NCBI GenBank assembly: GCA_963736005.1
Contig: CAVTNB010000001.1
Coordinates: forward strand, 64,001 to 128,000
DNA from: an uncultured Pseudomonadota bacterium
Lineage (GTDB): Bacteria > Vulcanimicrobiota > Vulcanimicrobiia > Eremiobacterales > Eremiobacteraceae
Reading direction: 5' to 3'
DNA length: 64,000 nt
Shown here: positions 18,689-60,473 of the stretch, piece by piece
Position numbering within the stretch: position 1 is the first letter of the stretch
Layout of the letters: each line of letters begins with the position of its first letter
Position numbers and translations under genes: made by a program
Notes under the pieces: model-generated
Database searches by the model: none
What the model was told of the DNA's origin: nothing
The model's input: the letters and a program-made list of their open reading frames with translations, nothing else

Positions 18689-18707
18689 TGTAAATTCCTT
18701 TGGTTGA

Positions 18708-19370
18708 TTACCTCGATCCCGAGACGGTAAAGTTCTCGTTGTTTTTCCCGCGCAAAGATTTGCCGTCGGGCGACATTACAAGCGTATCGACATAGTGCCC
18801 TACCGTGTTGTCACCGAAGTCCCAGGTCACGGTGTATGCGCCTCCTCGACGAACCCAGCTTGCAGCGTGTCCACCTCCTCCGCTGACCTGACCGTTCGCA
18901 TAAAACGTGACCGCGCTTCCGTTGAACCACCTCCAGGTGCCAACGATGGGATCCGAATGGCTCGATGGGATCGGCGTGACCACGAGGACAGTGGCGGGGT
19001 TACAGGGCGCGAGCTTGACGACTTGATCGGGTTGATCGCTATGATATTTGCTGAACTGGCTGATCGCCGCATCGACAGCACCCTTCGAACGTTCGGTCCG
19101 TACGAGCCGGTAGTTCGGGTTGTGGTCGTATCGCGACGGCCGAGCGGAACCGACGTATTGGATGTTGCACGGCAACCAATCACCTGGGCCGATGCGGTAC
19201 GCCCAGACGCCGTAGCTCGTCTGCACCTGCGTGCTCGCCGACGCGCAACATGCCGACCATAACAGCATGATGACGACCCCTGCGTTAACCAAGGGGCTGC
19301 CTGCCGCTCGATGAATCGGCGGAGCAGTGGACATAAGTTGAGTAGCCCTTGCGAAACGTTGTTCAGCCAT
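18708..19370 (-). CDS. Secreted hypothetical protein
   Basis: Hydrophobic leader then a beta-rich region (DPIVGTWRW); start uncertain. Confidence 0.55.
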
Positions 19371-30284: not shown

Positions 30285-32261
30285 ATGCCTACTTCGAAAG
30301 CTACCTCGGTCTGCCCGGTTGTGACGCGTGAAGAACTCCTGTACTTGCTCACCAGAGCGTCCGAACTTGAGCACGATCTGGCCTGCGTGTATCTGTACGC
30401 GGGCTACTCGCTGAAGAATCATATTAATGAGGGCGGGGTCACACCGGAAGAACTAGAGACCGTCCGCACGTGGAAGCGTAAACTTGCTGGAGTTGCCATC
30501 GAGGAAATGCTCCACCTAGCGCAGGTGTCTAACATCTTGACCGCAGTTGGCGGCGCTCCACATTTTGCTCGCTCGAATTTTCCTTTGCCGGCGTCGACCT
30601 TTCCCTTCGGTATCGCGCTGACGCTCGAGCCATTCTCGCAGGCACTCATCGAACGCTTCGTGTGTTACGAGTTACCCGAAGACGGCGTTTTGCCGAAAGA
30701 TCGCGCTGCCTTTTATGAAGCGATTCGCTCGCACATCGCGGTGAGCTTCGATCAAGTCGAAGCGATTCGGGTTCAGAACGCGTTGGAACCATTCGACATT
30801 GATTTTCGAACGGTCGGTGAATTCTATCACAAGATCGAGACAGCGTTCCACCGCATGCCCCAGGAGCGCCTGTTTATAGGACCACCCGAGGCGCAAGCGA
30901 ATCCGAAATATCTTGACCTTGCCGACGAACTGGTAGAAGTGACGGATGCCGCCTCTGCACTTCGCGCCATTGAAATGATTGTGGAGCAAGGGGAATCGCC
31001 AACCAGCGAACACCCAGACGCCCATTTCGTCGTCTTTGATTCCATCCGCGGAGAATACGAAGAACTGTGCTCGCGCGCAAAAGCACAGGGAAGAGTTTTC
31101 GATCCGGTTCGTCCCTTAATCAGCAATCCGACGACTCGCGGCTACGCTGATGCACCCGGTTCGAATCGTATCACTGGCGCCGTGGCCCAAGAGCTGGCGG
31201 AGCTTTTCAACGAGGCATACGATCTGATGCTGGTCATGCTCCTGAGATTTTTTGCGCATGAAGGTGAAACTGAAGAGCAATTTCGGTTGCTTGCACGAGG
31301 CACGTTGCGCATCATGGCTTCCGTGCTTCGGCCGCTCGGTGAAGCCCTCGCAAAGACCCCAGCCGGACCTGAGTATCCGGGAAAGATGGCCGGACCTGGT
31401 TTTGGATTCAATCGCAGCGTTCATCTCTTATCGCATCGGCAATCGGCATGGATATACTTTCTGGAGCGGCTCTACGATTTGGCAACTCGATTGACGCGAC
31501 TGGCGGACGAGTCGACGATACCGGCCGAAGTGCAAGAGGCGGCGGCTGCCCTCGAATCGGTGGCGGAGTATCTCACGCCATTCATTCCACCCAACTTTGC
31601 CCAAACGATTCGCGACAGCGCGAGCGCGCAGAACGCGCGCGCTACCATTCGCCCCGAGCTCAATGGGCCGCTGATCGTCCGCAATTTACAAAAAATCACC
31701 AATTCGAAAGGCGAGACTCTACGAACTCGCCCAGTCGTGGCGTTGTGTCGGTGTGGAGGATCGAACCTCAAACCGTATTGCGACGGTACGCATGCGCGCA
31801 ACGGCTTTGCGAGCGCCAAATCGCCAAATCGAACGCCGGATATCTTGGATAGCTATGAGGGGAATGGAATCACTGTCCGCGACAATCGGGGCACGTGCTG
31901 TCACTTTGGGAACTGCACCGATCATCTGCCGCAGGTGTTTCACGCGTCAGGCGAACCATTTGTCACGGCTTTGGGAGCGGATGCGGATAGTATCGAGCGT
32001 ATCGTGCGCCAGTGTCCTTCGGGAGCACTCGGCTTTGCCCGCGACGGAAATGCCTATCAAGGTGACCAGCGCGAACCCGAGATCTATGTCGCGAATAATG
32101 CGAGCTATTACGTTCGAGGCGGAATTGAATTGGATGGCGAGATGATGAATGAGGGCGCAAATCGCGAACACTACGCGCTCTGCCGCTGCGGGCAGTCAAA
32201 GAACAAGCCTTTCTGCGACGGGACCCATTGGTGGGTGAAGTTCAGCGATCCTGACAATTAG
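30285..32261 (+). CDS. Ferritin-like domain fused to CDGSH-FeS-CDGSH module
   Basis: ELEH..YLYA..EEMLHL..EQGE..H ferritin-like ligands; CRCGGSNLKPYCDGTH and CRCGQSKNKPFCDGTH; CCHFGNC..CPSGAL. Confidence 0.85.
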   Translation: MPTSKATSVCPVVTREELLYLLTRASELEHDLACVYLYAGYSLKNHINEGGVTPEELETVRTWKRKLAGVAIEEMLHLAQVSNILTAVGGAPHFARSNFPLPASTFPFGIALTLEPFSQALIERFVCYELPEDGVLPKDRAAFYEAIRSHIAVSFDQVEAIRVQNALEPFDIDFRTVGEFYHKIETAFHRMPQERLFIGPPEAQANPKYLDLADELVEVTDAASALRAIEMIVEQGESPTSEHPDAHFVVFDSIRGEYEELCSRAKAQGRVFDPVRPLISNPTTRGYADAPGSNRITGAVAQELAELFNEAYDLMLVMLLRFFAHEGETEEQFRLLARGTLRIMASVLRPLGEALAKTPAGPEYPGKMAGPGFGFNRSVHLLSHRQSAWIYFLERLYDLATRLTRLADESTIPAEVQEAAAALESVAEYLTPFIPPNFAQTIRDSASAQNARATIRPELNGPLIVRNLQKITNSKGETLRTRPVVALCRCGGSNLKPYCDGTHARNGFASAKSPNRTPDILDSYEGNGITVRDNRGTCCHFGNCTDHLPQVFHASGEPFVTALGADADSIERIVRQCPSGALGFARDGNAYQGDQREPEIYVANNASYYVRGGIELDGEMMNEGANREHYALCRCGQSKNKPFCDGTHWWVKFSDPDN

Positions 32262-37072: not shown

Positions 37073-38362
37073 TTACGTCGGTAGTTTTAGCGCCGTGCAA
37101 ACCGCTTGAGAAACGTGCAGCTTGCAAAAGGCATTTAAGTTAGCCGCCAACTTACCAGCCCACCCCTCAAACGTGTGTCGAAACGTAAGGCCCGAGGACG
37201 GATTGCCGAGAGTTAAACCGCTCGAATTAGCTGCGAACGTCCCCAACGCGACATCATTCTGATAGGTGATGAAGCTGTTCAAGGCGTTGGGGGACGCTGA
37301 AGGATTCGGCGCGGGCATGGTGGCCTCATGAGCAGCGGAATTGGCTTCCAGAAGCGTTCCTGCCAACGCGAGTGGGAAGAACGACAGCGCCGTCGTTTTG
37401 TTGCCGTCTGAGATGTTATCCGACCACACCGTCGAGAGGTACGGAGGAGCGGCAGAGCTGCAATTGACAACTTGCGCAGTAAAATTCGCTTCGCTGCTAC
37501 CGTAGACGGTGACAACCGCGAACGTCCCATCAGCGGTAACGGTTGAACCATTGAGGACAATCGCTCCGAGCGTTCCATGCCCAGCCGGCGTACTCTGGCG
37601 CGCACCATACGGATTGTTGGGATCGTTCGGCACGTACGGATCATCGAGGCACTGCGCGCGAAAATCCTCGAGGTTCCAGGTCGACTCCGGTACCACCGCA
37701 ACGGGATGCTGCGAATCGCAGTCGCGGAGCGAAATTTGACTGCGCGAGCAAACGTCATGTTCCAGCCGCTGGGCAATTACAAAGAGCAAAAAGTAGGCAG
37801 GGTTGTCGACGGAAGATCCGGTGGCAGTGCTACCCGTCGCAGGCCCGGAGCCGCCTTTGCCTCCACCTCCACCTCCGCCAGCGCTCGTTGCACCGCCAGA
37901 TTTTGTCGTGCCCGCTGGAGGGCCAGCCGGCCCGGCTCCAATCGATAAGAGCACGTAAAACGTCGGCTCTTGCGTTGCGACAAGAGGGGCTGCCTGAGGC
38001 TCGAGGCCGAGGACGCCTTCGCAAAAATTCAGTTGCTGCCAAAGTGCCCGTGGATCTCGTTCCCCCGGGTTCGGCGTGCAGGCACTCTTTGCCGCCGCCT
38101 GGCCGGCGAGCGCGGCGCAGGTATTGAGGCGACCAACGAGCAGCCCTGCGAGATAGGACTTCACGCCTACGGGGAGCGATTCAGGTGAGCTCTTGTATGT
38201 GGGCGAGTTGAAATTATACACGGCGACGATGTCATTGAGATCGGCCGTGCCGCAGATTGAGGTCGACAGCGCTGGCGAGGGCCCTTGCGCGCCATCTGCA
38301 CTCGTTGTTAAACCGGTCATAAGGCTACACACGAGGACAAATGCAAAAACCTTCTGGGTCAT
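37073..38362 (-). CDS. Secreted Cys-containing hypothetical protein with Gly-rich linker
   Basis: Signal peptide, AGGAG RBS, 24 bp downstream of the patatin gene. Confidence 0.75.
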   Translation of the reverse strand: MTQKVFAFVLVCSLMTGLTTSADGAQGPSPALSTSICGTADLNDIVAVYNFNSPTYKSSPESLPVGVKSYLAGLLVGRLNTCAALAGQAAAKSACTPNPGERDPRALWQQLNFCEGVLGLEPQAAPLVATQEPTFYVLLSIGAGPAGPPAGTTKSGGATSAGGGGGGGKGGSGPATGSTATGSSVDNPAYFLLFVIAQRLEHDVCSRSQISLRDCDSQHPVAVVPESTWNLEDFRAQCLDDPYVPNDPNNPYGARQSTPAGHGTLGAIVLNGSTVTADGTFAVVTVYGSSEANFTAQVVNCSSAAPPYLSTVWSDNISDGNKTTALSFFPLALAGTLLEANSAAHEATMPAPNPSASPNALNSFITYQNDVALGTFAANSSGLTLGNPSSGLTFRHTFEGWAGKLAANLNAFCKLHVSQAVCTALKLPT

Positions 38363-38386: not shown

Positions 38387-39589
38387 CTATTGCGTCAACG
38401 AGAAGCCGGCGAAGTCGTCGGGTGACACGTAGAGATCGGCCGCGGTCTTCCCGACGAGCTGCAATTCGTCGAGATGCGCGACGTCAAACGGCTGAACCGC
38501 ATTCTCGTCGACGCCATTCAACCCTAGCCGATCTAAACCTTGCCGCGAAAGGTCCACGTTGTAGCGCACATAGGTAAAGAGTTTCTCAGCCAGCGGCGCC
38601 TGATTGCCGACAAGGTCGCCGATCTCGGAGTCCAGCGCATGTCCTGTGCGGGTCCTTCCAAAGACGCGGCAGAGCATGTCTTGTTCGACGCCAGCGGCCG
38701 AGATGAGTGCAGCTGGCAGCGATTGCAGATTATACAGCAAGTTCATCTCATTTGGTCGCAGCTGCAGGTTCGCGCTCTCGCTCAAGCCTGTTCCGACGGA
38801 GAGCAGCAACAAATTTTCTTCACCGGCCGGCCACTGAATTTCGTACGGTGGCAGCGTGGCCATAAGAAACAGGAGAAACGCCGGATTGTTGTAGACGGTG
38901 ACGCCGCCGTCGACGAAGACAAACTGCTGATCGCCCACGCGAATCGTTTCAGGTGGGAAGAACACAGGGGCCGCCGTGCTCGCGCGTACTAGCTGCCAAA
39001 GCGGCAGATTTAAGTTGCAGTCCTTCAGCTCGCGCTGGTTGTACTGCGCTTTTGGATTGTTCGACAGCGGCCACGGCGAATCGGTCGATGCGTTACGCAT
39101 GACGATGAGCAGTAGGGTGCGAAGCTTGTCTGTTCCAAGCCTTGCATCTTCATCGCCGTCGGTTCCGATCACCGCTTTAATCTCTGCTGCCAGCGCCTTT
39201 TGCGTGAACATTGAAGAAGATGCGAGCACGCCGAGCGTGCTTAAAAATTTGGTAATCAATGAGTTCGGACCGAACTTGCGGCCAAGGCGCAAGAAGACAT
39301 TCGCCGGATCGAACATCGTGTGCGCGCCGGTTAAATAGAATTCTCGAATCTGTTGAGTGGAGAACCCAAGCGACGTGAACGTGGCGATAATCGCCCCCGT
39401 GCTCGTGCCGCCGACGTAGTCAAAGTAATCCGCAAGCACCAGGTCGCTCCGGCCAAACCTTTGGCGTAGCAGCGTCTCCACGCGAAAAAGGAACTCCAAA
39501 GCGATGAGCCCTCGAATGCCGCCTCCGTCGATCGAAAGAAGTTTCTTGGGACCACGCTTGGTTATACGTTCTTCGAGGTGTGGTTGCAT
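38387..39589 (-). CDS. Patatin-like phospholipase
   Basis: DGGGIRG, GTSTG, DGG catalytic motifs all intact. Confidence 0.95.
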   Translation of the reverse strand: MQPHLEERITKRGPKKLLSIDGGGIRGLIALEFLFRVETLLRQRFGRSDLVLADYFDYVGGTSTGAIIATFTSLGFSTQQIREFYLTGAHTMFDPANVFLRLGRKFGPNSLITKFLSTLGVLASSSMFTQKALAAEIKAVIGTDGDEDARLGTDKLRTLLLIVMRNASTDSPWPLSNNPKAQYNQRELKDCNLNLPLWQLVRASTAAPVFFPPETIRVGDQQFVFVDGGVTVYNNPAFLLFLMATLPPYEIQWPAGEENLLLLSVGTGLSESANLQLRPNEMNLLYNLQSLPAALISAAGVEQDMLCRVFGRTRTGHALDSEIGDLVGNQAPLAEKLFTYVRYNVDLSRQGLDRLGLNGVDENAVQPFDVAHLDELQLVGKTAADLYVSPDDFAGFSLTQ

Positions 39590-39725
39590 TGTGAACGCCT
39601 TCGTGATTGCTTGCCGCGGCGTTCGCCGAAAAGGGAGAACTTCTTCCAGCAGGCGCCGCTGGCGGGTTTCGAAGCGCGCTCCGCGAAAGCACGCCGCCCA
39701 GGTGCTATCAAATGCTAGTCAAGGT

Positions 39726-41381
39726 ATGAAAGCGCCGTTCGATGGCTTACCGCTCGTCGTCGGCGTAACCGGCCACCGCGATCCGCCGGCAGAGGCGGAA
39801 GGTACGCTTCGCAAACGTTTCGGCGACGTTATCCAGGGGCTCAGCACGCAGTACCCGTCGATGCAGCTTCTCGTCCTGTCGGGACTTGCGGCCGGTGCGG
39901 ATATATTGGCGGCAGAAGAAGCGCTGGACCGCGGCATTGCCGTGCTCGGATGCTTGCCACTGCCTCAGTCCGATTACGAGAGGGACTTCACGCCTTCAGA
40001 ACTTTTTCGTTTTCGCTCCGTCTTACCCCGATGCTGGGATGTCATCATCGTCGGATCGTCTGAAAAACGCGAGCAAAACTACGTCGATGTCGCGGACTTT
40101 ATCGCCTACTATTGCCATGTACTCGTGGCATTTTGGGATGGACTCCAAGCACGCGGACCTGGCGGGACTGCCGAAGTTGTCCACCTTCGAAAAAGTGGTC
40201 TGCCGGGAATCGTCGGCGACGCACTCGTGGCGTACGCGCCCGACACCGGCCCCGTGTTCCAGATCGTCACTCCACGCACGGATCGTCCGCCCCCTGCCGA
40301 GTGTTTCTCAGTGCACGCAAGTTACCCAGAGCGCCCGGCTTGGAATACCAAAGCTAGAAAATCCGAGAAAGTTGCGGGCGAGCAAGCATTTGAGCACGCC
40401 ATCGCGGATCTTGAGCGCTTCAACCGGGACCTCGGGCGCGAGCCTATACCCGCTGGACCCAGCGCACTGGCTGCCTTGCGCGACCGAACGGATGCAGCGG
40501 CCAACAAGTTACAGCGGGATACGGTGCGGTCGCTGCAAAGCGTGTACATTGCAACTGGGCTGGCAGGCGCCGCGCAGTTGGTGCTGCCCACTGACGGCTC
40601 GTTCAATATTCCAAGTTGGGCTGGCGTCGTCGCTAAAGTCGGATTTCTGGCCATCGCCTTTGCCGTGTTGGCGGTCGCCAAGCGGAACGACTTCGAGAAC
40701 CGGTACCAAGATTATCGCGCAATCGCGGAAGCGCTGCGCGTGCAATACGCGTGGTGTTGCGCAGGTGTGCGCACTCGTTTGGTGGAGGCATCCTACCTTG
40801 AGATGCAGCAAAGTGAACTCGAGTGGATCCGAATGGCACTTCGAACTGCATATTTGATTACCGGCACCGGGACTGCTGACGCCGGCGGCTCAGTGGAACA
40901 TCCCGAATGTGCGGGCTGGATCGATGGTCAACTTGAGTACTACCAAAAATCTGGAAGGCGCGAAGAGGAGCGCTTGCGCCGAGCACGATGGCTCATGATT
41001 GGCGCCGCAGCAGGGGGCGGTGTCATCTCGGCCGTTGCCGCTGTGTTTGCTTGGATGCTCTCCCACAACTTGCTCCCGATCGAGGCGTCCCAATATACGC
41101 AAACGTTGCATATGACGGCGTATTGGGCGACCATGCCCTTCGCACTGGGGAGCTTGTTCGCTCTTCTGATTCGCTTTTACATCCAGCAGCGGGGCTTTGC
41201 TGAGAATGCCCGGCGCTACCAGCACATGTTCGTGGTGTTCGACGCGGCGAAGAGACTGCTGCGCGAACAGATTCGCGATCCGCAAAGAGTCCTCGAACAA
41301 CTGGGCCACGAGTCCCTCTCGGAGCACGCAGATTGGTTGATTCTGCACCGCGAACGTCCGCTCAGTTTCGTGCACACGTAA
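39726..41381 (+). CDS. SLOG (YspA-like) domain fused to two SLATT-like 2TM modules
   Basis: VGVTGHRD, SGLAAGAD, VAFWDG..GGTAEVV; TM pair then YQDYRAIAEALR; second TM pair then E...W motif. Confidence 0.75.
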   Translation: MKAPFDGLPLVVGVTGHRDPPAEAEGTLRKRFGDVIQGLSTQYPSMQLLVLSGLAAGADILAAEEALDRGIAVLGCLPLPQSDYERDFTPSELFRFRSVLPRCWDVIIVGSSEKREQNYVDVADFIAYYCHVLVAFWDGLQARGPGGTAEVVHLRKSGLPGIVGDALVAYAPDTGPVFQIVTPRTDRPPPAECFSVHASYPERPAWNTKARKSEKVAGEQAFEHAIADLERFNRDLGREPIPAGPSALAALRDRTDAAANKLQRDTVRSLQSVYIATGLAGAAQLVLPTDGSFNIPSWAGVVAKVGFLAIAFAVLAVAKRNDFENRYQDYRAIAEALRVQYAWCCAGVRTRLVEASYLEMQQSELEWIRMALRTAYLITGTGTADAGGSVEHPECAGWIDGQLEYYQKSGRREEERLRRARWLMIGAAAGGGVISAVAAVFAWMLSHNLLPIEASQYTQTLHMTAYWATMPFALGSLFALLIRFYIQQRGFAENARRYQHMFVVFDAAKRLLREQIRDPQRVLEQLGHESLSEHADWLILHRERPLSFVHT

Positions 41382-41465
41382 TCTGGGAGACACGACGAAG
41401 GCGCACTCCAGGACTCTCCCAAAACCCGATGGAATCAATAGTTGGGTGTAACATCATCCATAAAT

Positions 41466-42980
41466 ATGCCGTTTCAAATTTTCGTTTCCTACGCGCGCAA
41501 CGACGACTTACCGCCCTTAGACGGCGAGGGTAAAGGCTTTGTCACAACGCTTCTGAAGCATTTGGAGTTTCACTTCACATCCTTCGGTGAGCCCACCCCC
41601 ATCATTTGGCGCGATAGGCGAGCCATCGCTCGCAGCGAGCAATTCGACCCCATCATTGAAAAGGGTATCAACGACTCGCACTTACTACTCGTCGTGCTCT
41701 CCAACAACTGGATTCACCGCGAGTTTTGCCGCCGGGAACTCGAGCTTTTTTCCCAGCGCTGGCGCAGCGAGGGAGAAGGGGCTGTAAAACAGCGGATCAT
41801 TGTTGTGGGCAAGAATCACATCGAACCCTCTGCGCGGCCTCCTCTCTTGCAAGGCCAAGAGGGCTATCTGTACTACGCTCCGGACGAAGACAATCCAAGC
41901 CGATTTCGAGAGTTTTTTGTGCGCGGAAAAGCGCGCGAAGAGTTTCACGATCGAACGCAAGAGCTTGCCGAAGATATTTGGCGGCGGGCCTGCGAGCATG
42001 AACAGCTGCCGATGCCCGATTCGACGGGACCTTCGTGGACGCCGATTTCGTCGAGCGGGCGCAAAATTTATCTCGCCAAGCCTGCTGCTGACATGCGCCC
42101 GGCATACGCGCGCTTAGTTGACGAGCTGCGCCAACGCGGCTACATTGTCGAACCGAAACCGGACGCCGAGATGCCGTCTGACGCGAGCGCAAAGGAATTT
42201 ATTCGAGGCGCGCTCGCCGGCACAGAGCTATCGATTCACCTGCTTGGTGAAAAGGCTGGTTGGACCCCCGAGGACTGCGAACCGATTATTCCATTGCAGC
42301 TCAAGATGGCGTCCGATGCGCAGTCGCGGCGTATCATTTGGGCGCCGCGAATACTCGTAGAGGAGCACTCTCAAGCTGCCGAGGGCACCGCGCGCGATCC
42401 TTTTGCCGTTCTTGCCAAGTTCGATCGCAAGCTCGACAGCGACACAGTCGATGGCAGCGAGATCAGCGCCTTCGCGCAGTTCGTCATCCAGCATCTCGAC
42501 AAAAACGTGCCTCCAGTTCCGGACATAGAGGCCATAGAGCCGAATGCGCGCGTCTACCTCTATCACCGGCCGGAGGACACACACTATGCAGTTGAAATCG
42601 CAAAGGCGTTGGCGCAGCGCGGTATCCAGCCGGTCTTTCCGGCCTTTGAGGGCGATCCGGCCGAGCTCGCTGCGCTCCATCGCCAGGAACTCGCCGAGTG
42701 TGATGCCGTCGTATTGTGTTGGGCAAATGCCGCGGAGGTGTGGGTAAAAAGCCAGGCTCGCGAACTCAAAAACTGGCGCGATCTCGGTCGAGACAAAAGG
42801 TTTGCATGCCGCGGTTTGGTGGCTGGACCGCCTCCAGGCCAACGCAAGGACCTGCTTGTGCAACTCCCGCCGCGCAACGAGATCGACGTCGTGGTCGATC
42901 TCACCGGCTCCGAAACTCTCGTTCCTGAGGCGCTTGACCCTCTGATCCGCGCAACCCAACCGCCCAAGGACGCGGCCTAA
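41466..42980 (+). CDS. TIR domain protein with two further TIR-like (DUF4062-like) folds
   Basis: IFVSYARND..LLVVLSNNW..FCRRELELF; then IYLA..LSIHLLG; then VYLYH..CDAVVLCW. Confidence 0.82.
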   Translation: MPFQIFVSYARNDDLPPLDGEGKGFVTTLLKHLEFHFTSFGEPTPIIWRDRRAIARSEQFDPIIEKGINDSHLLLVVLSNNWIHREFCRRELELFSQRWRSEGEGAVKQRIIVVGKNHIEPSARPPLLQGQEGYLYYAPDEDNPSRFREFFVRGKAREEFHDRTQELAEDIWRRACEHEQLPMPDSTGPSWTPISSSGRKIYLAKPAADMRPAYARLVDELRQRGYIVEPKPDAEMPSDASAKEFIRGALAGTELSIHLLGEKAGWTPEDCEPIIPLQLKMASDAQSRRIIWAPRILVEEHSQAAEGTARDPFAVLAKFDRKLDSDTVDGSEISAFAQFVIQHLDKNVPPVPDIEAIEPNARVYLYHRPEDTHYAVEIAKALAQRGIQPVFPAFEGDPAELAALHRQELAECDAVVLCWANAAEVWVKSQARELKNWRDLGRDKRFACRGLVAGPPPGQRKDLLVQLPPRNEIDVVVDLTGSETLVPEALDPLIRATQPPKDAA

Positions 42981-42983
42981 GAA

Positions 42984-45900
42984 ATGCGCCCGTTCCCGGG
43001 GCTTCGACCCTTTGACTTTGAGGATCGCGATTTCTTCTTCGGCCGTGAAGACCAAATCTATTCGCTGTACCGCCTGTTAGAGCACAGTCGCTTCATTGCC
43101 GTGGTTGGCAGCTCGGGAAGTGGAAAGTCGTCACTGGTTCGTGCTGGACTCCTACCGGTCATTGATGAAGAAAGCCAGGGCCAAGGCGGGCGAAAGTGGC
43201 GCTTTGCTACATTGCATCCGGGGGACGCGCCAATAAAGGCGCTGGCTTCTGCCGTCACATCGCTTGCCCAGGACAGCGGTGAAGACTCCGAAATTCGCCA
43301 CGAGCGTACGCTCTTTACCCTACGGCGCTCGAGCTTCGGCCTCGCCAAAGCACTAGACGAAGTTCCAAACCTTACCGGTAAGTCTGTGTTGCTCGTCGTT
43401 GATCAGTTCGAGGAGCTCTTCAGGTATGCCACAAGCTCAGCGCGCGACCGGGTGGCAGGTGCACTGTGGCGCGACGAGGCCACGAACTTCGTTCAGCTTT
43501 TGCTGGAAGCAACGCGTAGCCGATCCAGTTCCGTATACCTGTTGATCACGATGCGCTCGGATTTCATCGGCGACTGCTCGCAATTCCATGGCTTGCCCGA
43601 GGCGGTGAGCGCAGCACAGTTTCTTGTCCCATCTTTGACTCGCGATCAGCGCGAAGACGTTATCCGCAAGCCGGTTGAAAAAGCTGGCGCTAGCATTGAT
43701 TCGACCCTCGTTGAGGTACTCTTGAACGACGCCGGCAGTGAGATGGACCAGCTTCCGGTCTTGCAGCATTGCCTAGCGCGCTTGTGGGATCGAGCCAAAG
43801 CTGCGAGTGATGATGACGCGAGCCGTCATCTCGGGCTTACCGAATATCGCGCTCTTGGGGGCATCTCGGGCGCACTCTCACAACATGCTGACGAGGTCAT
43901 GGCTTCCCTGCCTGGGCTCGAGCTCGCGGTTGAACAGATCTTCCGCGCGCTCAGCGAAATCGACAAGGAGGGTCGCGCTACTCGCAGAGCGTTGCCGTAC
44001 TCGAGCCTCCTGGCGGAAACTGGAGTTGGCAAGCGCGACCTGGTACGCGTGCTCGATCGTTTCCGTGCCGACGACTGTTCCTTTCTCTTGCCGTCTCTTT
44101 CGGCGGTGCCGCTGCTTCTCGGCGACACACGAGTTGATGTGGTTCACGAGGCGCTGTTGCGGCGCTGGGAGCGCATTAGCGCAGAGCAACCACACATTCT
44201 CGACGGACGGATGCAAACTGGATGGCTTGCTGCGGAAGCCGCCGATGGGAGATTTTACCGGGCACTGCTTGCGTTGCTGGAAACCGAATCTGCGTCCAAT
44301 GCGGTAACCCTGCCGCTCGACCAAGTCGAAGCTCGTTGGCACTGGTGGAAATCGCGTCCGCGAACGGAGGCTTGGGCCGAGCGCTACGGTGGCCGCCTCG
44401 CGAGCGTTGAGAAGTTGTTCCAAGACAGTCTGGCGGCACTCGCGGCCGATCGAGCGCGCCAAGAGGAAGCGGAACGCCGCGAACGCGAGCAAGAGCGTCG
44501 CAAGATCGAAGCGGAAGAAGCGGCAAAGCGCGAGCGGTTGCAGCATGAAGCTGAAGTCGATCGGATGCGTGCAGAATCTGCGCAACGGCTGACCCACCGC
44601 ACTCGGATCGCAGCCTTCGCAATGTCCCTTGTCGCTCTCCTCGCGGTAGTCTTGGCGGTGTTTGCTTGGCATCAAAAGCAAGTGGCCGATGAAAAGACTT
44701 TTATAGCGATCGCTGCAACCGGTAAAGCCGGTACAGCAACCAAAATCGCACAGCAACAAAAGAAGCGCGCTGACAGAGAGGCGAATATAGCAACCACAAA
44801 AGCACAGCTCGCTGCGGTGAGCGCAGAGCATGCAATGGTTGAAACCAAGCTTGCCAAGGCAGCCCTCGCAAAAGCTCAGCAACAAAGTGAGTTGGCAGTT
44901 CAGCAGCGGAAGCTTGCAGACCAGCAGCGCACGATTGCACAAAATCGGACGGAGCAGGCCCTCACTGCACGCTCCCAAGTTTTTCTGCAAAGAGGTCGAC
45001 AGGCGCTGCTCGACGGCGATGACAACGACGCAGCTCTTTTGCTCGCCGCCGCGTACAGCGGCGACTCGCAGAATCCGGTTTTGCAGCTCTTGCTACAGCA
45101 AGCACTTGAGAAGCTGCAGATCCGGCCCAAACCCATTAGCGCTCACGATGACCTCATCACGGCGCTGGCATTCAACCCCGATAAGAACGAAGACCAGATT
45201 GCGACGGCGAGCACCGACGGTTCGGTTAAACTTTGGAGCGGCACTGGTCGTTTGATCCACGAGTTTCGAGATCAGAAGGATCTCATCACCGCACTCGCTT
45301 TCGATCCTTCCGGGCGATACCTTGTCAGTGTTGGTCGCGATGGATCTGCTAAGCTCCACGATCTTGCGGGTGTGACCCTTGGCTCCGATCCGCCAGCAAT
45401 AGCCCTGCTTGATGTGAAGGACCAACTCGAAGGCCATGTCGGGCGCGTCAATTCGGTTATCTTTAGTCATAGCGGCACGCGCATCCTGACGTCGGGCAGC
45501 GACGGCATGGTCAAAGTCTGGAACGCGACGAACGGCAAAATGCTTACGGAGTGGAATGGAGCGGCACTAGGTGTTGGAATCAACGACGCGTCGTTTAGCC
45601 GGGACGATCGGATTGTCGCCGCATGCGCCGCCGACGGTTCGCTCACGGTTTGGAATTCGGATACGGGCGCTCAGATTGGGTCGACAACCGTGTCGTCGAA
45701 AAGCCCGCTTGTCCATATCGCCATCTCCCCCAGTGGGAAAAGCGTAGTTGCGGGAGCACTCGACGGGACGATTTTATCTTTCGATGTTGATACCAAGCAA
45801 TCGAACGAGTTGCACTATCAACATGCTGCAATTAACGCAGTTTCATTCGATATGACCGGCGAGCGCGTTGTGAGTGCGAGCGACGACGGAACGATCCTTC

Positions 45901-47336
45901 TCCTCGATGCCGCAAGCGGCGAGCCGCAGAAAATCTTGCCAGCAAGGCCGGGTACGCCCGCAGCGTTAACTGCCTCATTTAACCCTTCAAGTAACGGCTT
46001 TGAGACAACGTACGCGGACGGCTCCGTCAATTTCTGGACGCAGGAGGGCGATCCGATCGCTGTGTTGCGCACACCTACGGGCGAAGCGGTCGTCGCGAGT
46101 TTTTCTCCGGATGGGAGTGTCCTCGCGACTGGCAGCGAGCATGGCAAAGTGTACCTGTGGCAGTTGCCTGCTGCGATAGCGCGGAATGACTTCTCGCATC
46201 GCGGGGCGATCGATTCAATTGAGTTCGATCGCGCTGGCCGCAGCATGCTGACGGCCAGTCAAGATGGGACTGCAGCGCTGTGGCGAGTCGAGCGAGAGCT
46301 CCGGATGCAGCGCGTCTTGCCTCACACACCTGGTCAGGCATGGGTCGTTGCCGCGCACTTCAGCGCTGACAGCCGGCGCATCGTCACAGCCGGCGGCGAC
46401 GCTGTGAAAATCTGGGACACCACATCAGTAGGTGCGCGCCCATTGACTACTATTCGCACAACGGGGCCGCTGAAGCGTTTTACGCAGGCCGCCTTCGTCG
46501 GGCGAAGCCACAACGTCATTGTTGCGCAAACCGATACGAGCCTGACCTCTCCTGTTTACAAGACGAATGGGTGGACGGTGTGGTCGGGCGACGGCGTAAG
46601 ACTCTTCAAGGAACCTGGCTGGCTAACAGGTATCCGGGAATTGGACCTAACGGACGACGGTAATTTCGTGCTTTCGATCAGCGCAAATGGATATGCGTTC
46701 TTTTGTCCGACAGACGGCGCGGATAGTTGTCGGGAGTGGACGAGTGCATCGGAGGGCATTTCGGCCCGCGACCGCTTTGTGGTAGGCGGAGCTGGAGGAG
46801 GGATTCACGTTGTTGACCGGGATGGCAATGAGATAAGCCATTGGTCGAGCGACGACAAGCGCGTCTTGGCCTTCGCGATCTCCGCAGATGACAAATGGCT
46901 TGCATCCGGCGGTACGGGAGGGTCGCCTGGGGCGATATGGGATCTTGCACAACATGGACAGCGGCACGTGCCCCTAGGAGGCGGTGCGGGTGAAATTGAG
47001 TCGGCAGCATTCTCGCCAGGCAGCGGGGTCTTTCTTTTGGGGACTGCCTCCGATGGAACCGCAAAGCTTTGGGATCGTGAGTCCGGAAATCTCGTTGCCT
47101 CGGTGTCCGTTCCGGGATCGCGTGCGACCGCTGCAACTTTCACGCCCGATGGTTCTGCAGTCGTCATTGGTGCGCAAAATGGAGGCATCTTCATCTGGCC
47201 TATTCTTGGACGCCTTTCCAATCCACACGATGTTGCAAAGCGCGTGCTTCGTGAGACCGATCGTTCGGGTCTTTCCGATCCGTTGGTAAGCCAAGCAATC
47301 GGCGTCTTACAACAGGCAGCACGAAATGGACAGTAG
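42984..47336 (+). CDS. nSTAND1 NTPase-TM-coiled coil-WD40 repeat protein
   Basis: PFPGLRPF, GSSGSGKSSLVRAGL, VVDQFEELF, TMRSDF, HEALLRRW; one TM; more than 10 WD40-like repeats. Confidence 0.92.
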   Translation: MRPFPGLRPFDFEDRDFFFGREDQIYSLYRLLEHSRFIAVVGSSGSGKSSLVRAGLLPVIDEESQGQGGRKWRFATLHPGDAPIKALASAVTSLAQDSGEDSEIRHERTLFTLRRSSFGLAKALDEVPNLTGKSVLLVVDQFEELFRYATSSARDRVAGALWRDEATNFVQLLLEATRSRSSSVYLLITMRSDFIGDCSQFHGLPEAVSAAQFLVPSLTRDQREDVIRKPVEKAGASIDSTLVEVLLNDAGSEMDQLPVLQHCLARLWDRAKAASDDDASRHLGLTEYRALGGISGALSQHADEVMASLPGLELAVEQIFRALSEIDKEGRATRRALPYSSLLAETGVGKRDLVRVLDRFRADDCSFLLPSLSAVPLLLGDTRVDVVHEALLRRWERISAEQPHILDGRMQTGWLAAEAADGRFYRALLALLETESASNAVTLPLDQVEARWHWWKSRPRTEAWAERYGGRLASVEKLFQDSLAALAADRARQEEAERREREQERRKIEAEEAAKRERLQHEAEVDRMRAESAQRLTHRTRIAAFAMSLVALLAVVLAVFAWHQKQVADEKTFIAIAATGKAGTATKIAQQQKKRADREANIATTKAQLAAVSAEHAMVETKLAKAALAKAQQQSELAVQQRKLADQQRTIAQNRTEQALTARSQVFLQRGRQALLDGDDNDAALLLAAAYSGDSQNPVLQLLLQQALEKLQIRPKPISAHDDLITALAFNPDKNEDQIATASTDGSVKLWSGTGRLIHEFRDQKDLITALAFDPSGRYLVSVGRDGSAKLHDLAGVTLGSDPPAIALLDVKDQLEGHVGRVNSVIFSHSGTRILTSGSDGMVKVWNATNGKMLTEWNGAALGVGINDASFSRDDRIVAACAADGSLTVWNSDTGAQIGSTTVSSKSPLVHIAISPSGKSVVAGALDGTILSFDVDTKQSNELHYQHAAINAVSFDMTGERVVSASDDGTILLLDAASGEPQKILPARPGTPAALTASFNPSSNGFETTYADGSVNFWTQEGDPIAVLRTPTGEAVVASFSPDGSVLATGSEHGKVYLWQLPAAIARNDFSHRGAIDSIEFDRAGRSMLTASQDGTAALWRVERELRMQRVLPHTPGQAWVVAAHFSADSRRIVTAGGDAVKIWDTTSVGARPLTTIRTTGPLKRFTQAAFVGRSHNVIVAQTDTSLTSPVYKTNGWTVWSGDGVRLFKEPGWLTGIRELDLTDDGNFVLSISANGYAFFCPTDGADSCREWTSASEGISARDRFVVGGAGGGIHVVDRDGNEISHWSSDDKRVLAFAISADDKWLASGGTGGSPGAIWDLAQHGQRHVPLGGGAGEIESAAFSPGSGVFLLGTASDGTAKLWDRESGNLVASVSVPGSRATAATFTPDGSAVVIGAQNGGIFIWPILGRLSNPHDVAKRVLRETDRSGLSDPLVSQAIGVLQQAARNGQ

Positions 47337-49044
47337 GCAACTTCAGCTTGCGATCGTTCAAATTGTGTGTGCGCTGCTTGCATCTTTGCTGGTCGTCGCG
47401 CCCGCACGCGCAGAAAAAGTTTCCTTTGACGTCACAACGTATGGCGATTTTCACATCAACTTTATCGATATACGTACGCAAGGTGGCCTTGGTATGGGAA
47501 TATCGCGTGTCTACAATTCTCTCGATAACGACAGAACAGGCAGATTCGGCAATGGCTGGAGCGCGCAAGCTGAAACCTACGTGACCGTCGAAGCTGACGG
47601 TTCTATCGTCATTCACGAATATGGTGGCGGTGCCAACAACGCCTTCCAGCCGACAACGCTGAGCCGTCGCGCATCAACGGACATCCTGAATGAGATCATG
47701 CGAGCAGCCGAAGAAACTGGTAAATTTGGCAGCGATGCTGATAGATTGGCATATCGCCAGTGGCTGGAGACCGACGACAACGAAGAATACGCGTGGGAGA
47801 ATTTTGCTAGCCTCGGCTTAGTGAGGCAACAAGATCCGCCAATCGGAGAAACGTTTTTTAGCGGCCGCTTCGATACGGAGTTCGTTACTCGGGTTCCCGA
47901 AGGTTATCAGCGGGAAATGAAATATACCGGCGGGGTCTTATTTCAGGCCTTTAATTTTGGGGGGCGGCTTACTCGCTACTGGGATACGAATCACAATTTT
48001 ATCGCCTTAAGCTACGGACAAGATGGTAACATTCAGGAAGCATTGGACAACGAAGGCGACCGATTCGCGTTTTCGACTAAAAACGGTCTCGTCGCTCGCG
48101 TGAACGATCCTCCTGACCACTTGGTGCTCTATGACTACAAGACCTCGAATGTTCCCTATAGCGGTTACGACCTCACATCGGTGACCGTGGATGGCAAGAA
48201 GACGCGTTATGACTACGATCGAAACGACAGAATCATCGCCATCTGGTATCCTGATAGCACGTCGATGCACATTACCTACGATCAAACCGGTAAGGCAACG
48301 AGCGTGAAAGATACAGACGGTACTATGACTACCTACAGTTACACGACCCGCAGAACTCAAATGATCGACGTCTCTACTTTCGAGGAAGACATACACAAGT
48401 CGAACGGCGAGATCCACCGCGATACATTCCAGTCGTTTTATGACCCTCCCGATTACTACAAGGATAAAGAAATCGAAACGGATGACGGAGTGGTGGTAAA
48501 AACAACAACCTATAATTCTAATGGTGATGAATTAACGAGCACAACAGCAAAAGGCAGCACTGAGTACGGATATGATTCGCTAGATCGCGAGATACTTGAA
48601 AAGGAGCCGACGGGCAGGACGCTCACATGGCAGTATGATCCTGCCACCGGCAGTGTCTCGGTTACCAACGAAACGGATAAGAATTCCGTTCTCACCGAAC
48701 ACTTTGAATATGACCCTCGAGGCAACCTCGCGCGGGCCTACGACAACGATGGACATGATTTTACCATCAACCATGATGAGCATGGGCGAATCGCCTCTGT
48801 AAGCGGCACGCTCCATCTGAGCTTTCAGTATCCCAATGGTCGCGCGCCAAATCCGACCACTGTGGCGCTCGATGGAGTTGATTCGGTGGGCATTTCATAT
48901 CTCCCAAACGGTGACGTAGAGAAAGCGCAGAGTCTTGGAGGCGCTGTCGTCGTCGATAAGGTCAGAGTAGCGCTCAAAACCGTGGATGACCTCATTTCAG
49001 ATGCCGGCTTCGACGTAGTCACGTTGCCCGCGACTAGCAAATAA
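47326..49044 (+). CDS. Exported DUF6531/YD (RHS-like) repeat protein
   Basis: Signal peptide; SRVYNS..FGNGWS; YDYD, YDSLDR, YDPRGNL repeats; overlaps the upstream gene by 11 bp. Confidence 0.85.
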   Translation: MDSRQLQLAIVQIVCALLASLLVVAPARAEKVSFDVTTYGDFHINFIDIRTQGGLGMGISRVYNSLDNDRTGRFGNGWSAQAETYVTVEADGSIVIHEYGGGANNAFQPTTLSRRASTDILNEIMRAAEETGKFGSDADRLAYRQWLETDDNEEYAWENFASLGLVRQQDPPIGETFFSGRFDTEFVTRVPEGYQREMKYTGGVLFQAFNFGGRLTRYWDTNHNFIALSYGQDGNIQEALDNEGDRFAFSTKNGLVARVNDPPDHLVLYDYKTSNVPYSGYDLTSVTVDGKKTRYDYDRNDRIIAIWYPDSTSMHITYDQTGKATSVKDTDGTMTTYSYTTRRTQMIDVSTFEEDIHKSNGEIHRDTFQSFYDPPDYYKDKEIETDDGVVVKTTTYNSNGDELTSTTAKGSTEYGYDSLDREILEKEPTGRTLTWQYDPATGSVSVTNETDKNSVLTEHFEYDPRGNLARAYDNDGHDFTINHDEHGRIASVSGTLHLSFQYPNGRAPNPTTVALDGVDSVGISYLPNGDVEKAQSLGGAVVVDKVRVALKTVDDLISDAGFDVVTLPATSK

Positions 49045-58430: not shown

Positions 58431-58487
58431 GAGCGGACCTAAAGGTCCGCTGCTACATAGCGGGGCGATTTTCGGATTGCCCCCTAC
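58431..58487 (-). repeat. Compound REP-like unit (family B plus family A hairpins)
   Basis: GAGCGGACCTAAAGGTCCGCTGCTAC then GGGGCGATTTTCGGATTGCCCCCTAC; family B recurs at 61556..61581. Confidence 0.75.
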
Positions 58488-58503
58488 GAATAACTACATC
58501 GAG

Positions 58504-59430
58504 ATGAAGAGAGTGGTCATTCCAGCGCGTGTCAACGAAGCGACCATGCGCTTCGGGCCTCGCGAAGTTTCGCTGACTAATCTTACCAAGGTCTTCTGGC
58601 CCGATCTTGGTATCACCAAGCGCGACTTGCTGCAATATTACGCCGACGTCGCCGCCGTCTTGCTACCCCATCTTCACGATCGGGCAATGGTGATGAAGCG
58701 CTATCCCAATGGCGCTTATAAAGAATTCTTCTTTATGAAGCGCGCGCCGTCGCCACGACCGCCATGGATCGAGATCTGTACCATAAAGCACTCCTCGGGC
58801 AACGTGATTGACTTTCCCATGATCCAGGACGTTCCATCACTGCTGTGGGTCATCAATTTGGGCTGTATCGATCTCAATCAGTGGTACGCCCGTTGCGACG
58901 ACGTTGACACGCCCGACTACGTTCATTTCGACCTCGATCCAGTCCCTGGCGCCACCTTCGAGAGGGTGCTCGAGAGCGCGCTCATCGTGCACAAGGCGCT
59001 CGACAAACTTGGGATGCCCAATGTTGTCAAGACAAGCGGCTCGCGCGGCATGCACGTTTACGTTCCGATCGTTCGCGGCCCCACACAAAAAGAGGTCTGG
59101 ACTTTCGCCAAAGCGTTCGCCCATAGCTTGGCGCCAGAGCATGCCAAACTGCTGACGGTTGTTTATAAGACCGCGAACCGTCCGCGCGGGCGCGTGCTCC
59201 TCGACTACAATCAAAACGCGTGGGGTCGCACCCTTGCATCGGTTTATTCGGTTCGGCCAAAGCGGCGCGCACCGGTGTCGACGCCGGTGACGTGGCGTGA
59301 AGTCGAGCGCGGCTTGCGCATCGAAGACTTTCGTATGGACAATGTGCCGGCGCGAGTCCGCAAGCTCGGCGATCTTTGGGAGTCGTTGCTCGCACGAAGC
59401 GGGCGGTTTGATTTGCGCAGGTACTTATGA
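58504..59430 (+). CDS. LigD-type primase-polymerase domain protein (stand-alone)
   Basis: RYPNG..FFMK, FDLDP, KTSGSRGMHVY, DYNQN..YSVR. Confidence 0.92.
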   Translation: MKRVVIPARVNEATMRFGPREVSLTNLTKVFWPDLGITKRDLLQYYADVAAVLLPHLHDRAMVMKRYPNGAYKEFFFMKRAPSPRPPWIEICTIKHSSGNVIDFPMIQDVPSLLWVINLGCIDLNQWYARCDDVDTPDYVHFDLDPVPGATFERVLESALIVHKALDKLGMPNVVKTSGSRGMHVYVPIVRGPTQKEVWTFAKAFAHSLAPEHAKLLTVVYKTANRPRGRVLLDYNQNAWGRTLASVYSVRPKRRAPVSTPVTWREVERGLRIEDFRMDNVPARVRKLGDLWESLLARSGRFDLRRYL

Positions 59431-60473
59431 CGGCAAAGAAAATGCGGCTGCCGATCACCCCTCCGTACCCGCCGATGGAAACCAGATCCAGCGAAACAAT
59501 TCCCACGGGCGACGAGTGGCAGTACGAGCCCAAGTGGGATGGTTTTCGCTGCCTTGTCTTCAGAGATGGCGACGAGATATTTTTGCAGTCAAAGAACGGC
59601 TTGCCATTGGCGCGCTACTTTCCAGAAATGGTGGAGCATGTACGCGCGCTCAAGGCCAAAAAGTTCGTGCTCGACGGCGAACTCGTGATCCGCGTGGGGA
59701 AATCACTTTCTTTCGAGGAGCTGCAGAACCGTCTTCACCCGGCAGAGAGTCGAGTGCGCAAGCTCTCGCGCGAACATCCGGCAAGCTATTTGGTCTTTGA
59801 CCTCCTCGCGGACGACCGCGGAACAAGTTTGGTCGCGATGCCTTTACGCGAGCGCCGGCGTCGCCTCGAGGCGTTTGCAAAGCGGTATTTTAGCGGCGGC
59901 AGCATTCGGCTGTCTAAAGCGACCAAGCAACGCCGGGTTGTCGATACTTGGCTCTCCTCTGTGGGAGGCGCGCTCGATGGCATCATTGCGAAGCGTCTCG
60001 ATCTCGACTACCGGTCCGGCGATCGCACGGGAGCCCAAAAGATCAAGAAGCTGCGCACGGCTGACTGCGTCGTCGGAGGCTTTCGCTACGCCAGCGGCAG
60101 CAAAGTCATTGGATCCCTCTTGCTGGGTTTGTTCGACGATCGCGGCCTCCTCAATCATGTCGGCTTTACGTCGGGGTTGAGCGTAGACGAACGCAAGACT
60201 CTCGTGCGCACCCTCAAACCGCTCATCCGGCCACCTGGCTTTACCGGCCGTGCACCGGGTGGCCCGAGTCGCTGGAGCACGGATCGCACCGACCAGTGGG
60301 AACCGCTCGCACCGAAACTTGTTGTTGAGGTGAGTTTCGATCATGTGAGCGATGACCGATTTCGTCATGGAACGCGCTTGTTGCGCTGGCGTCCGGACAA
60401 ATCGCCGCGGCAGTGCACGATGGAGCAACTGGAGTCTGCCGGCGGTGCTTCGGTCTTAAAATTGAGCACCTAG
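59427..60473 (+). CDS. ligC: ATP-dependent DNA ligase, LigC-type
   Basis: YEPKWDGFR, LDGEL, FDLL, GGPSRWS, RFRHG..WRPDK. Confidence 0.9.
   Translation: MTAKKMRLPITPPYPPMETRSSETIPTGDEWQYEPKWDGFRCLVFRDGDEIFLQSKNGLPLARYFPEMVEHVRALKAKKFVLDGELVIRVGKSLSFEELQNRLHPAESRVRKLSREHPASYLVFDLLADDRGTSLVAMPLRERRRRLEAFAKRYFSGGSIRLSKATKQRRVVDTWLSSVGGALDGIIAKRLDLDYRSGDRTGAQKIKKLRTADCVVGGFRYASGSKVIGSLLLGLFDDRGLLNHVGFTSGLSVDERKTLVRTLKPLIRPPGFTGRAPGGPSRWSTDRTDQWEPLAPKLVVEVSFDHVSDDRFRHGTRLLRWRPDKSPRQCTMEQLESAGGASVLKLST

Follow-up and report, generated by a model that had tools for sequence, protein, structure and literature searches.

The locus analyzed here encodes a three-domain TIR protein (TIR3), an nSTAND1 NTPase with WD40 repeats and four further products, and is treated below as a candidate conflict system. 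It lies in a 64,000-nucleotide stretch of DNA, called the window throughout, that covers positions 64,001 to 128,000 of contig CAVTNB010000001.1 (GenBank assembly GCA_963736005.1) from an uncultured soil bacterium of the family Eremiobacteraceae. Four genes are read on the forward strand. The SLOG-SLATT gene (39726..41381) encodes 551 amino acids (aa), counted from the ATG common to its homologues. The TIR3 gene (41466..42980, 504 aa) follows after a gap of 84 bp and the nSTAND1-WD40 gene (42984..47336, 1450 aa) after another 3 bp, and a YD/RHS-repeat gene (47326..49044, 572 aa) overlaps the end of the nSTAND1 gene by 11 bp. On the reverse strand, a patatin gene (38387..39589, 400 aa) is followed 24 bp downstream by a gene for a 429-aa protein (37073..38362) with a signal-peptide-like N-terminus and a Gly-rich stretch. 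The patatin start and the SLOG-SLATT ATG are 136 bp apart, and this divergent intergenic region (39590..39725) separates the patatin operon from the SLOG-SLATT operon. A scan for consensus promoters found no site within it, and promoter and terminator scans gave no more sites than shuffled sequence.

Five of these genes had been described in an initial annotation made without database searches. An open reading frame (ORF) check of the window returns the same five intact genes with the same coordinates and spacings, the reading frames being open in all five across 38387..49044. Pfam upholds every domain call made at that time, and the motifs named then (Walker A GSSGSGKS, patatin GTSTG and the TIR glutamate in CRRELE) are all present. 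The sixth conserved gene (37073-38362) and a transmembrane helix at residues 542-560 of the NTPase had been missed.

TIR3 and nSTAND1 genes form a conserved pair

A scan with the TIR3 alignment, taking one genome per species, gave 57 loci. A TIR3 match of at least 400 aa was present in 44, and 41 of those retained at least 1500 bp of downstream sequence. An nSTAND1 gene follows TIR3 after 7-226 bp in all 41 informative loci, six of which are from close relatives of the window. Judged by record titles, the loci with the pair are spread over Eremiobacterota/Vulcanimicrobiota, Alpha-, Beta- and Gammaproteobacteria, Chloroflexota, Acidobacteriota, Bacteroidota and SAR324, with Bradyrhizobium, Rhodopseudomonas, Labrys, a betaproteobacterium, Thiothrix, Limnocylindrales and Flavobacteriales among the named carriers. 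The TIR3-nSTAND1 pair is thus the obligate core of the system, and the SLOG-SLATT, patatin and YD proteins are lineage-specific additions in Eremiobacterota-like genomes. Where accessory genes accompany the pair, the records are Eremiobacterota-like throughout, except for a patatin gene in one Rhodopseudomonas record; an RHS gene lies downstream of WD40-type nSTAND1 genes in 11/44 loci. The initial annotation had presented its five parts as one unit, a view that does not survive this comparison, in which the core pair mostly occurs without SLOG-SLATT, patatin or YD protein.

Closer to the window, the association of the parts is tight. Among 41 relatives searched, SLOG-SLATT was found in 18 and TIR3 in 10, and all 10 TIR3 carriers also have SLOG-SLATT. 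Within the family of the window, TIR3 is present in genera g1 (3/3), g3 (4/4) and g5 (1/3), and in no other searched genus. Eight loci from the same family could be compared: all six genes stand in the same order in seven, and the eighth is cut by a contig end. Co-occurrence of the homologues, which the initial annotation had named as a check, is borne out both by the synteny of six genes in the seven relatives' loci with enough DNA and by the recurrence of the five-part set in rearranged orders. In addition to the arrangement of the window (hyp429<patatin / SLOG-SLATT>TIR3>nSTAND1>RHS), we found TIR3>nSTAND1>RHS> <patatin<SLOG-SLATT (L036 and L107), SLOG-SLATT>patatin>TIR3>nSTAND1 (L049) and patatin>SLOG-SLATT> <nSTAND1<TIR3 (L093). 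Linkage of the accessory genes with the pair persists through at least four gene orders. The flanks of the locus vary between genera, and within the genus a 3.3-kb insertion lies between the locus and its upstream neighbours.

Genome G005 carries a 2-kb insertion between SLOG-SLATT and TIR3 (L017:10157-12132; L031:3702-5680), as compared with 84 bp in the window, and its two ORFs (401 and 273 aa) match no Pfam family. A 'Candidatus Cybelea' record (L061) has the TIR3-nSTAND1-RHS trio flanked by conflict-type genes at 7748-9924 and 17472-18926. One flank encodes a divergent ThsB-like TIR protein (PADLOC ThsB1, 1.9e-23) and a SLOG LD_cluster3 protein, and the other a ParA-like/TIR protein (PDC-M28B, 9.8e-26). 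Upstream of TIR3-nSTAND1-WD40 in a Flavobacteriales record (L064:4411-6635), a caspase (Peptidase_C14) gene and a short TIR_2 gene are oriented divergently, a pair reminiscent of type IV Thoeris.

TIR3 contains one canonical TIR domain

TIR3 matches Pfam TIR_2 (1.1e-14), and its AlphaFold2 (AF2) model resolves three Rossmannoid domains with a predicted local distance difference test score (pLDDT) of 88.7. The first (D1, residues 1-180) is a canonical TIR domain. VIA-align superposes it on the RPP1 TIR with Z 14.0 (root-mean-square deviation 2.4, 138 aligned), on SARM1 with Z 11.5 and on ThsB (6lhy) with Z 10.6. Its Glu91, within CRRELE, is invariant in 57/57 aligned homologues. The second domain (D2, 197-350) is TIR/deoxyribosyltransferase-like, with MilB (Z 11.3) and RCL (Z 10.7) among its VIA-align matches, and it also resembles deoxyribosyltransferases and the TIR of TIR-STING (Z ~11). 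The third (D3, 360-499) is receiver- or deoxyribosyltransferase-like (ETR1 receiver Z 11.0, deoxyribosyltransferase Z 10.8), where Z values of 10-11 support a common fold only. In a profile search of the Protein Data Bank (PDB), D1 alone was matched, to the TIRs of plant TNL proteins (TIR-containing nucleotide-binding leucine-rich repeat receptors), Cat1 and AbTIR. The 'multi-TIR' label of the initial annotation consequently holds for one domain, the other two being Rossmannoid domains of TIR/deoxyribosyltransferase-like or receiver-like type. More than 100 full-length homologues, with identities of 43-59%, share the three-domain architecture.

Seven proteins of the locus (E ≤ 0.01) and 59 neighbours or homologues (E ≤ 1e-8) were compared with PADLOC-DB 2.0.0, a library of 2023 that predates Thoeris types III-XI. 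TIR3 itself reached ThsB1 only at E 0.004, together with a weak match to PDC-S66 (3e-4; 9e-10 in L034).

In a genome of the same genus (G002; L011:10555-12065, L028:10001-11511), TIR3 is split into two frames that overlap at about residues 95-106, within the catalytic TIR domain. Either the gene is a frameshift pseudogene or the assembly has an indel at this point; the remainder of that locus is 85-98% identical to the window.

The nSTAND1 partner is predicted to span the membrane

The nSTAND1 module (42984..44423, forward strand; residues 1-480 of 1450) starts at the N-terminus of the protein, without an N-terminal effector domain, and matches Pfam nSTAND1 over residues 3-399 (1.9e-88). Both the Walker A motif (GSSGSGKS at residue 42; G42...K48 S49) and the Walker B motif (D140 Q141 F142 E143 E144) are invariant in 32/32 aligned homologues. 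A single predicted transmembrane helix (44607..44663, residues 542-560; Kyte-Doolittle 19-residue mean 2.84) comes next, followed by an Ala/Gln/Lys-rich helical stalk and a WD40 beta-propeller region (45084..47336, residues ~700-1450). Residues 719-1395 match WD40 (Pfam, 7.5e-56) and many other beta-propeller families, and the region is predicted to be an extracytoplasmic sensor.

The helix is a general property of the partners. A transmembrane segment was found in 38/45 partner ORFs, and four of the seven without it are ORFs shorter than 450 aa that end before that point. Among ORFs of at least 600 aa, 36/39 have the segment, conserved in position. Its N-side flank is Lys/Arg-richer in 32 of these 36, equal in one and poorer in three, a positive-inside bias that favours an N-in orientation. 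These data fit a topology with the N-terminus in and the C-terminus out, that is, a cytoplasmic ATPase with the repeats outside. Because a conserved transmembrane helix stands between the ATPase and the repeats, the WD40 propellers are probably periplasmic, and the sensor probably lies outside the cytoplasm, a placement that the initial annotation had not foreseen.

The C-terminal repeats of the partners differ by lineage: WD40 in Eremiobacterota, Flavobacteriales and SAR324, and TPR in Alphaproteobacteria. One Acidobacteriaceae record has an nSTAND1 partner with no recognised repeat family. Between genera, identity falls from TIR3 (82-87%) and the NTPase module (80-85%) to the WD40 region (57-65%) and the YD protein (40-55%). 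Such a gradient fits a conserved cytoplasmic signalling core with outward-facing parts that evolve faster. In a 'Candidatus Zemynaea palustris' record (L040:11571-16045), the nSTAND1 gene is split within the NTPase module into ORFs of 277 and 1221 aa.

SLOG-SLATT protein and its neighbours

The product of the first gene upstream of TIR3 combines an N-terminal SLOG domain with two SLATT-type helical membrane modules, as in the SLOG-SLATT effector family. The two domains, SLOG and SLATT, were reportedly defined by Burroughs et al. in 2015. Pfam matches are DUF4231 (1.5e-6), SLATT_1 (7.8e-5), SLATT_3 (3.3e-3) and DNA_processg_A (1.2e-3); across 56 family members the counts are DUF4231 27, SLATT_3 18, YAcAr 16, DNA_processg_A 10 and SLATT_1 7. 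An AF2 model built on a 56-sequence alignment (pLDDT 91.8, predicted template modelling score 0.91) has an alpha/beta SLOG domain at residues ~10-200. The best Foldseek match of this domain is YpsA (2nx2; E 6.7e-5, TMt 0.63), with DprA, ShosA, Moco carrier protein and LOG, all of them SLOG-fold proteins, among the further matches. Beyond it, long helices include strongly hydrophobic segments at 299-317 and 423-441. The protein is predicted to be a signal-gated membrane effector. Its family comprises 764 representatives (50% identity, E ≤ 1e-30), and in viral contigs we found two partial matches, to the SLATT part alone.

The whole model also gave weak Foldseek matches to TRPM2, TRPM3, TRPM4 and TRPM8 (probability 0.2-0.44), which we record as a lead only. 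A SLOG-like domain is present in TRPM N-termini, and ADP-ribose is the ligand that gates TRPM2.

SLOG-SLATT genes recur beside TIR proteins other than TIR3. In class-level relatives without TIR3, SLOG-SLATT adjoins another TIR protein in 5/7 loci: a 362-aa TIR, TIR-NB-ARC-TPR fusions (three loci, once with a patatin gene between the two) and a CHASE2-TIR. Of 32 metagenome loci from a distant SLOG-SLATT branch (~30% identity), eight have a Pfam TIR_2 protein within two ORFs of the SLOG-SLATT gene on one side or the other, and tblastn added one further SLOG-SLATT locus with a TIR (L100). In a phylum-wide sample of 151 genomes, TIR3 was present in 14 and SLOG-SLATT in 33. SLOG-SLATT was found in 12/14 genomes with TIR3, as compared with 21/137 without it, a contrast that overstates independence because the sampled genomes are related. 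In this sample both genes were confined to two of the 21 families. They are adjacent in G000, G005, G022 and G131, 4 kb apart in G145, 10 kb apart in G165 and 20 kb apart in G037.

Other genes also recur near members of the distant branch: MAP3K_TRAF_bd/TPR-S proteins in four loci (L022, L091, L135, L155), Tll0287-like+HAMP proteins in four (L129, L131, L147, L158) and Peptidase_M48 in two (L150, L162). Peptidase_M48 was also seen near TIR3 in L036 and L060. Recurrent neighbours of SLOG-SLATT may be alternative sensors or partners.

Patatin and secreted products

The patatin protein (Pfam Patatin, 9.1e-24) retains its catalytic motifs, namely a GGGxRG oxyanion motif, GTSTG at residue 61 (Ser63) and DGG at 227 (Asp227), and is predicted to be a second effector. 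Its nearest models are those of the CBASS-type phospholipase effector (PADLOC PDLC00758, 4.5e-35). It scores 92.3 bits against NCBIfam CBASS_lipase, under the cutoff of 200 that defines a CapV equivalog. In a PDB sequence search, plant patatin (3.2e-16) and CapV (1.6e-15) were matched over the first ~100 residues only.

The YD/RHS protein matches Pfam RHS_repeat (5.8e-15) and DUF6531 (3.9e-9) and NCBIfam YD_repeat_2x (4.5e-12). It begins with a signal peptide (hydrophobic N-terminus at 6-24, then APARA) and ends at 572 aa with neither a PxxxxDPxG core-end motif nor a toxin domain; its score against NCBIfam RHS_core is 46.6 bits, the cutoff being 2000. A reading as an Rhs/YD polymorphic toxin was rejected: the repeats are present, but the core-end motif and toxin domain are absent.

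The 429-aa protein matched no Pfam, PADLOC or NCBIfam family and gave no usable match in the ESM Atlas. It is syntenic with patatin in 8/8 same-family loci (one cut by a contig end), its N-terminal part was found near patatin also in the distant loci L020, L032, L049, L088 and L098, and its gene probably belongs to the patatin operon. Three of the six products of the locus are predicted to be wholly or partly extracytoplasmic.

Surroundings of the locus

The window is chromosomal with a G+C content of ~57%, and the source assembly amounts to 2.84 Mb in six contigs (84% complete). The neighbours of the locus on its two sides are housekeeping genes: a sigma-70 factor with DUF6596, DUF885, a TonB-dependent receptor, tRNA-Phe and an ABC transporter. 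Elsewhere in the window, a LigD primase-polymerase gene adjoins an ATP-dependent DNA ligase gene (58477-60473), forming a split LigD-type end-joining pair. At 30285-32261, a 658-aa protein combines a ferritin-like domain, a divergent 4Fe-4S mono-cluster domain and two CDGSH iron-binding zinc fingers.

Proposed mechanism and alternative explanations

We propose that the locus encodes a TIR-based conflict system, probably anti-phage or anti-invader, built on a membrane-spanning receptor like those of the nucleotide-binding leucine-rich repeat (NLR) family. A NAD-derived product of TIR3 would open a SLATT pore gated by SLOG, and patatin would serve as a second effector. We give this proposal an even chance of being right. 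The periplasm-facing propellers would sense an envelope-side cue, with the secreted YD-repeat protein as a possible co-receptor or bait. The NTPase would then oligomerise in an ATP-dependent manner and recruit and activate TIR3, whose TIR domain would cleave NAD+ to give an ADP-ribose-derived messenger; here we infer a signal rather than NAD+ depletion. Binding of the messenger to SLOG would cause the SLATT modules to open or oligomerise, with loss of membrane integrity, and the patatin phospholipase could mount a second attack on the membrane. The affected cell would be expected to stop growing or to die. Where a lineage has the TIR3-nSTAND1 pair alone, the TIR itself would be the effector, by NAD+ depletion.

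Contact between the two core proteins was examined by complex prediction. The nSTAND1 module (residues 1-480) with TIR3 gave a median score of 0.42 (runs 0.29, 0.42 and 0.55), and the best of three controls scored 0.00. Contacts agree by at least 46% between runs, and the partner pLDDT is at least 79. The mark for this score was reached by 116/157 solved complexes and 2/215 mismatched pairs, with scores of 0.60 or below accounting for 18/157 and for both mismatches. A score in that range is more often wrong unless the pairing is likely beforehand; here it is likely because the two genes are adjacent in 41/41 loci. The prediction lends the proposed contact weak support.

That this support is weak counts against the proposed chain of events, as do a number of genomic observations, most of which bear on the main rival explanation. 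In that explanation the two modules are independent neighbours: TIR3-nSTAND1 would kill by NAD+ depletion, SLOG-SLATT and patatin would act separately, perhaps sensing falling NAD+ or free ADP-ribose, and their linkage would reflect clustering of accessory genes without a dedicated messenger. The pair mostly stands alone, since among the 44 TIR3 loci SLOG-SLATT occurs in 8 (leaving 36/44 without it), patatin in 9 and RHS in 11. Searches of two alphaproteobacterial genomes that bear the pair, one of Bradyrhizobium and one of Labrys, found SLOG-SLATT in neither, so the pair does not need these effectors, and no SLOG-SLATT was detected in the TIR3 genomes G109 and G140 (TIR3 being only a partial match in G140). 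In G101 at least 770 kb separate the two modules, and in G091, G111, G170 and G171 they lie on different contigs. SLOG-SLATT, for its part, forms a tight pair of its own with patatin, which is present in 18 of 80 SLOG-SLATT metagenome loci and within 150 bp in 15, mostly without TIR3 detected in the available DNA; 24/32 loci of the distant SLOG-SLATT branch are without a TIR among the nearest ORFs. The authors of a Thoeris survey treat TIRs of STAND (Avs) proteins as NAD+-depleting effectors (10.64898/2025.12.03.692087). Nonetheless, SLOG-SLATT has no signal generator of its own and yet lies beside TIRs of at least three unrelated architectures, the five-part set survives four gene orders, and SLOG-SLATT is concentrated in genomes with TIR3 (12/14 versus 21/137). 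We think independent neighbours rather unlikely. The signalling step proposed here has a precedent in Thoeris types I and VII.

A role outside immunity was also considered, in which the WD40 receptor, YD protein and 429-aa protein would monitor the envelope or neighbouring cells, and membrane remodelling or the onset of developmental lysis would fall to the TIR, SLOG-SLATT and patatin. The three wholly or partly extracytoplasmic products are in line with such a role, as is the strong conservation of TIR3 between genera (82-87%), and related nSTAND1 systems are linked by comparative genomics to multicellular-type conflict and apoptosis (PMC8195603). The housekeeping flanks on the chromosome and the failure to find any TIR3 relative on viral contigs are also in line with it. 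These two points speak against the immune proposal as well, as does the lack of a PADLOC match for most genes next to the pair in other phyla; the defence-island signal is modest. Set against this are the patchy distribution over genera (all searched members of g1 and g3, one of three in g5, none elsewhere), flanks that differ between genera, and the occurrence of some loci beside ThsB-like, caspase or LmuB-like genes; TIR, STAND, SLATT and CBASS-like patatin are, moreover, otherwise typical of abortive-infection systems. A non-immune role seems to us quite improbable on balance. Chance juxtaposition of unrelated genes deserves next to no credence, being contradicted by the 41/41 adjacency of the core, the six-gene synteny in seven relatives' loci and the recurrent linkage after rearrangement.

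A more specific version of the immune proposal can be put forward tentatively, and we would not bet on it. The locus may encode a bacterial transmembrane NLR, in which periplasmic WD40 repeats (TPR in Alphaproteobacteria) sense an envelope event such as phage adsorption, injection or damage, perhaps aided by the secreted YD-repeat protein, and act through the STAND ATPase and the three-domain TIR on the SLATT pore and patatin. If true, this would be the first STAND immune receptor looking outside the cytoplasm. A TIR-STAND pair that is widespread in at least six phylum-level groups, with its repeats beyond a membrane helix, would mean that the envelope or periplasm is under surveillance, whereas the described Avs and bNACHT receptors and Thoeris TIRs are taken to detect phage components intracellularly. 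The Eremiobacterota version would offer a natural case for STAND-controlled TIR signalling by a small molecule as opposed to NAD+ depletion alone, and cultured carriers of the core (Bradyrhizobium, Labrys and Rhodopseudomonas records) make the pair tractable.

Comparison with known systems

No named multi-gene system in PADLOC-DB 2.0.0 was matched by the proteins of the locus, their neighbours or their homologues, which agrees with the initial annotation in recognizing none. Its view of the arrangement as undescribed stands in so far as PADLOC has no match for it, and has to be tempered for the signalling half. That half is less new than had been thought, because a TIR with SLATT (type VII) and multiple TIRs with a DprA-type SLOG (type III) are already named types of Thoeris. 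In the literature searched, we found no description of a three-domain TIR partner of nSTAND1, of a transmembrane STAND receptor with external repeats or of the six-gene set. A pairing of SLOG-SLATT with TIR may already be listed in Burroughs et al. 2015 or in supplements to the Thoeris preprint, and the latter may also include a phospholipase type.

The locus looks like an undescribed relative of bacterial immune signalling systems, and among named ones Thoeris types VII, I and III come nearest to it. The likeness to Thoeris lies in a TIR enzyme with its catalytic Glu whose neighbour is an effector with both a SLOG fold and SLATT modules, the SLOG-SLATT fusion being encoded 84 bp upstream of the TIR gene. 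The Thoeris survey, which predicts 29 types, describes 3' cyclic ADP-ribose (3'cADPR) bound by the SLOG of ThsA in type I, and canonical cADPR made by the TIR activating the SLATT effector ThsH in type VII (10.64898/2025.12.03.692087). Among the curated Thoeris models of PADLOC 2.0.0, the ThsB1 match of TIR3 at E 0.004 is the only one, and no ThsA model matched SLOG-SLATT. According to a review, the SLOG of the type III effector (ThsD) is DprA-type; that of the locus is YpsA/DprA-like. ThsH is described with a SLATT annotation only, whereas the locus joins a SLOG and two SLATT modules in one protein. The TIR of the locus has three domains and an obligate, separate transmembrane STAND NTPase as its partner, in contrast to Thoeris, where the TIR itself is taken as the sensor. 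Patatin, the YD-repeat protein and the secreted 429-aa protein are additions relative to Thoeris. The survey dropped the TIRs of AVAST (Avs) proteins (10.64898/2025.12.03.692087), a filter that might also remove STAND-linked TIRs like TIR3.

With Avs/AVAST and bNACHT proteins, the locus shares a STAND NTPase with Walker motifs, C-terminal WD40/TPR repeat sensors and an effector of the TIR family. In Avs proteins the effector is an N-terminal fusion, whereas here it is encoded by a separate upstream gene, and no PADLOC Avs model matched the proteins of the locus (E ≤ 0.01) or their homologues (E ≤ 1e-8). The Avs proteins described so far detect their phage protein triggers in the cytoplasm. The NTPase of the locus belongs to the nSTAND1 clade, and its transmembrane helix sets the repeats across the membrane from the ATPase. 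The conflict systems described for the same clade (PF20703) have variable effectors, including TIR, and treat SLATT as a predicted nucleotide-responsive pore (Kaur, Burroughs, Iyer, Aravind; eLife 2020, 2021). In the accessible portions of those papers, bDLD3/EAD10 adaptors and EACC1 systems are described, and the three-domain TIR, the transmembrane topology and the SLOG-SLATT/patatin/YD set are not. The patatin of the locus is most like the phospholipase effector models of CBASS, as in CapV; a reading of the locus as CBASS was rejected, no CD-NTase being present among its genes or 16 flanking ORFs.

Beyond bacteria, the nearest parallels are plant and animal receptors. In plant TNL signalling, a small molecule made by the TIR acts through EDS1 on a helper-NLR channel, and animal Toll-like receptors consist of an ectodomain, a transmembrane helix and a cytoplasmic TIR. 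The logic of plant TNLs (a STAND-linked TIR, a small molecule and a membrane channel) and the layout of Toll-like receptors are analogies here, and we claim homology for the TIR and STAND domains only. If the proposed mechanism is true, the two would be joined in a single prokaryotic operon. In its working, the locus would resemble a Thoeris system to which an NLR-like receptor has been joined.

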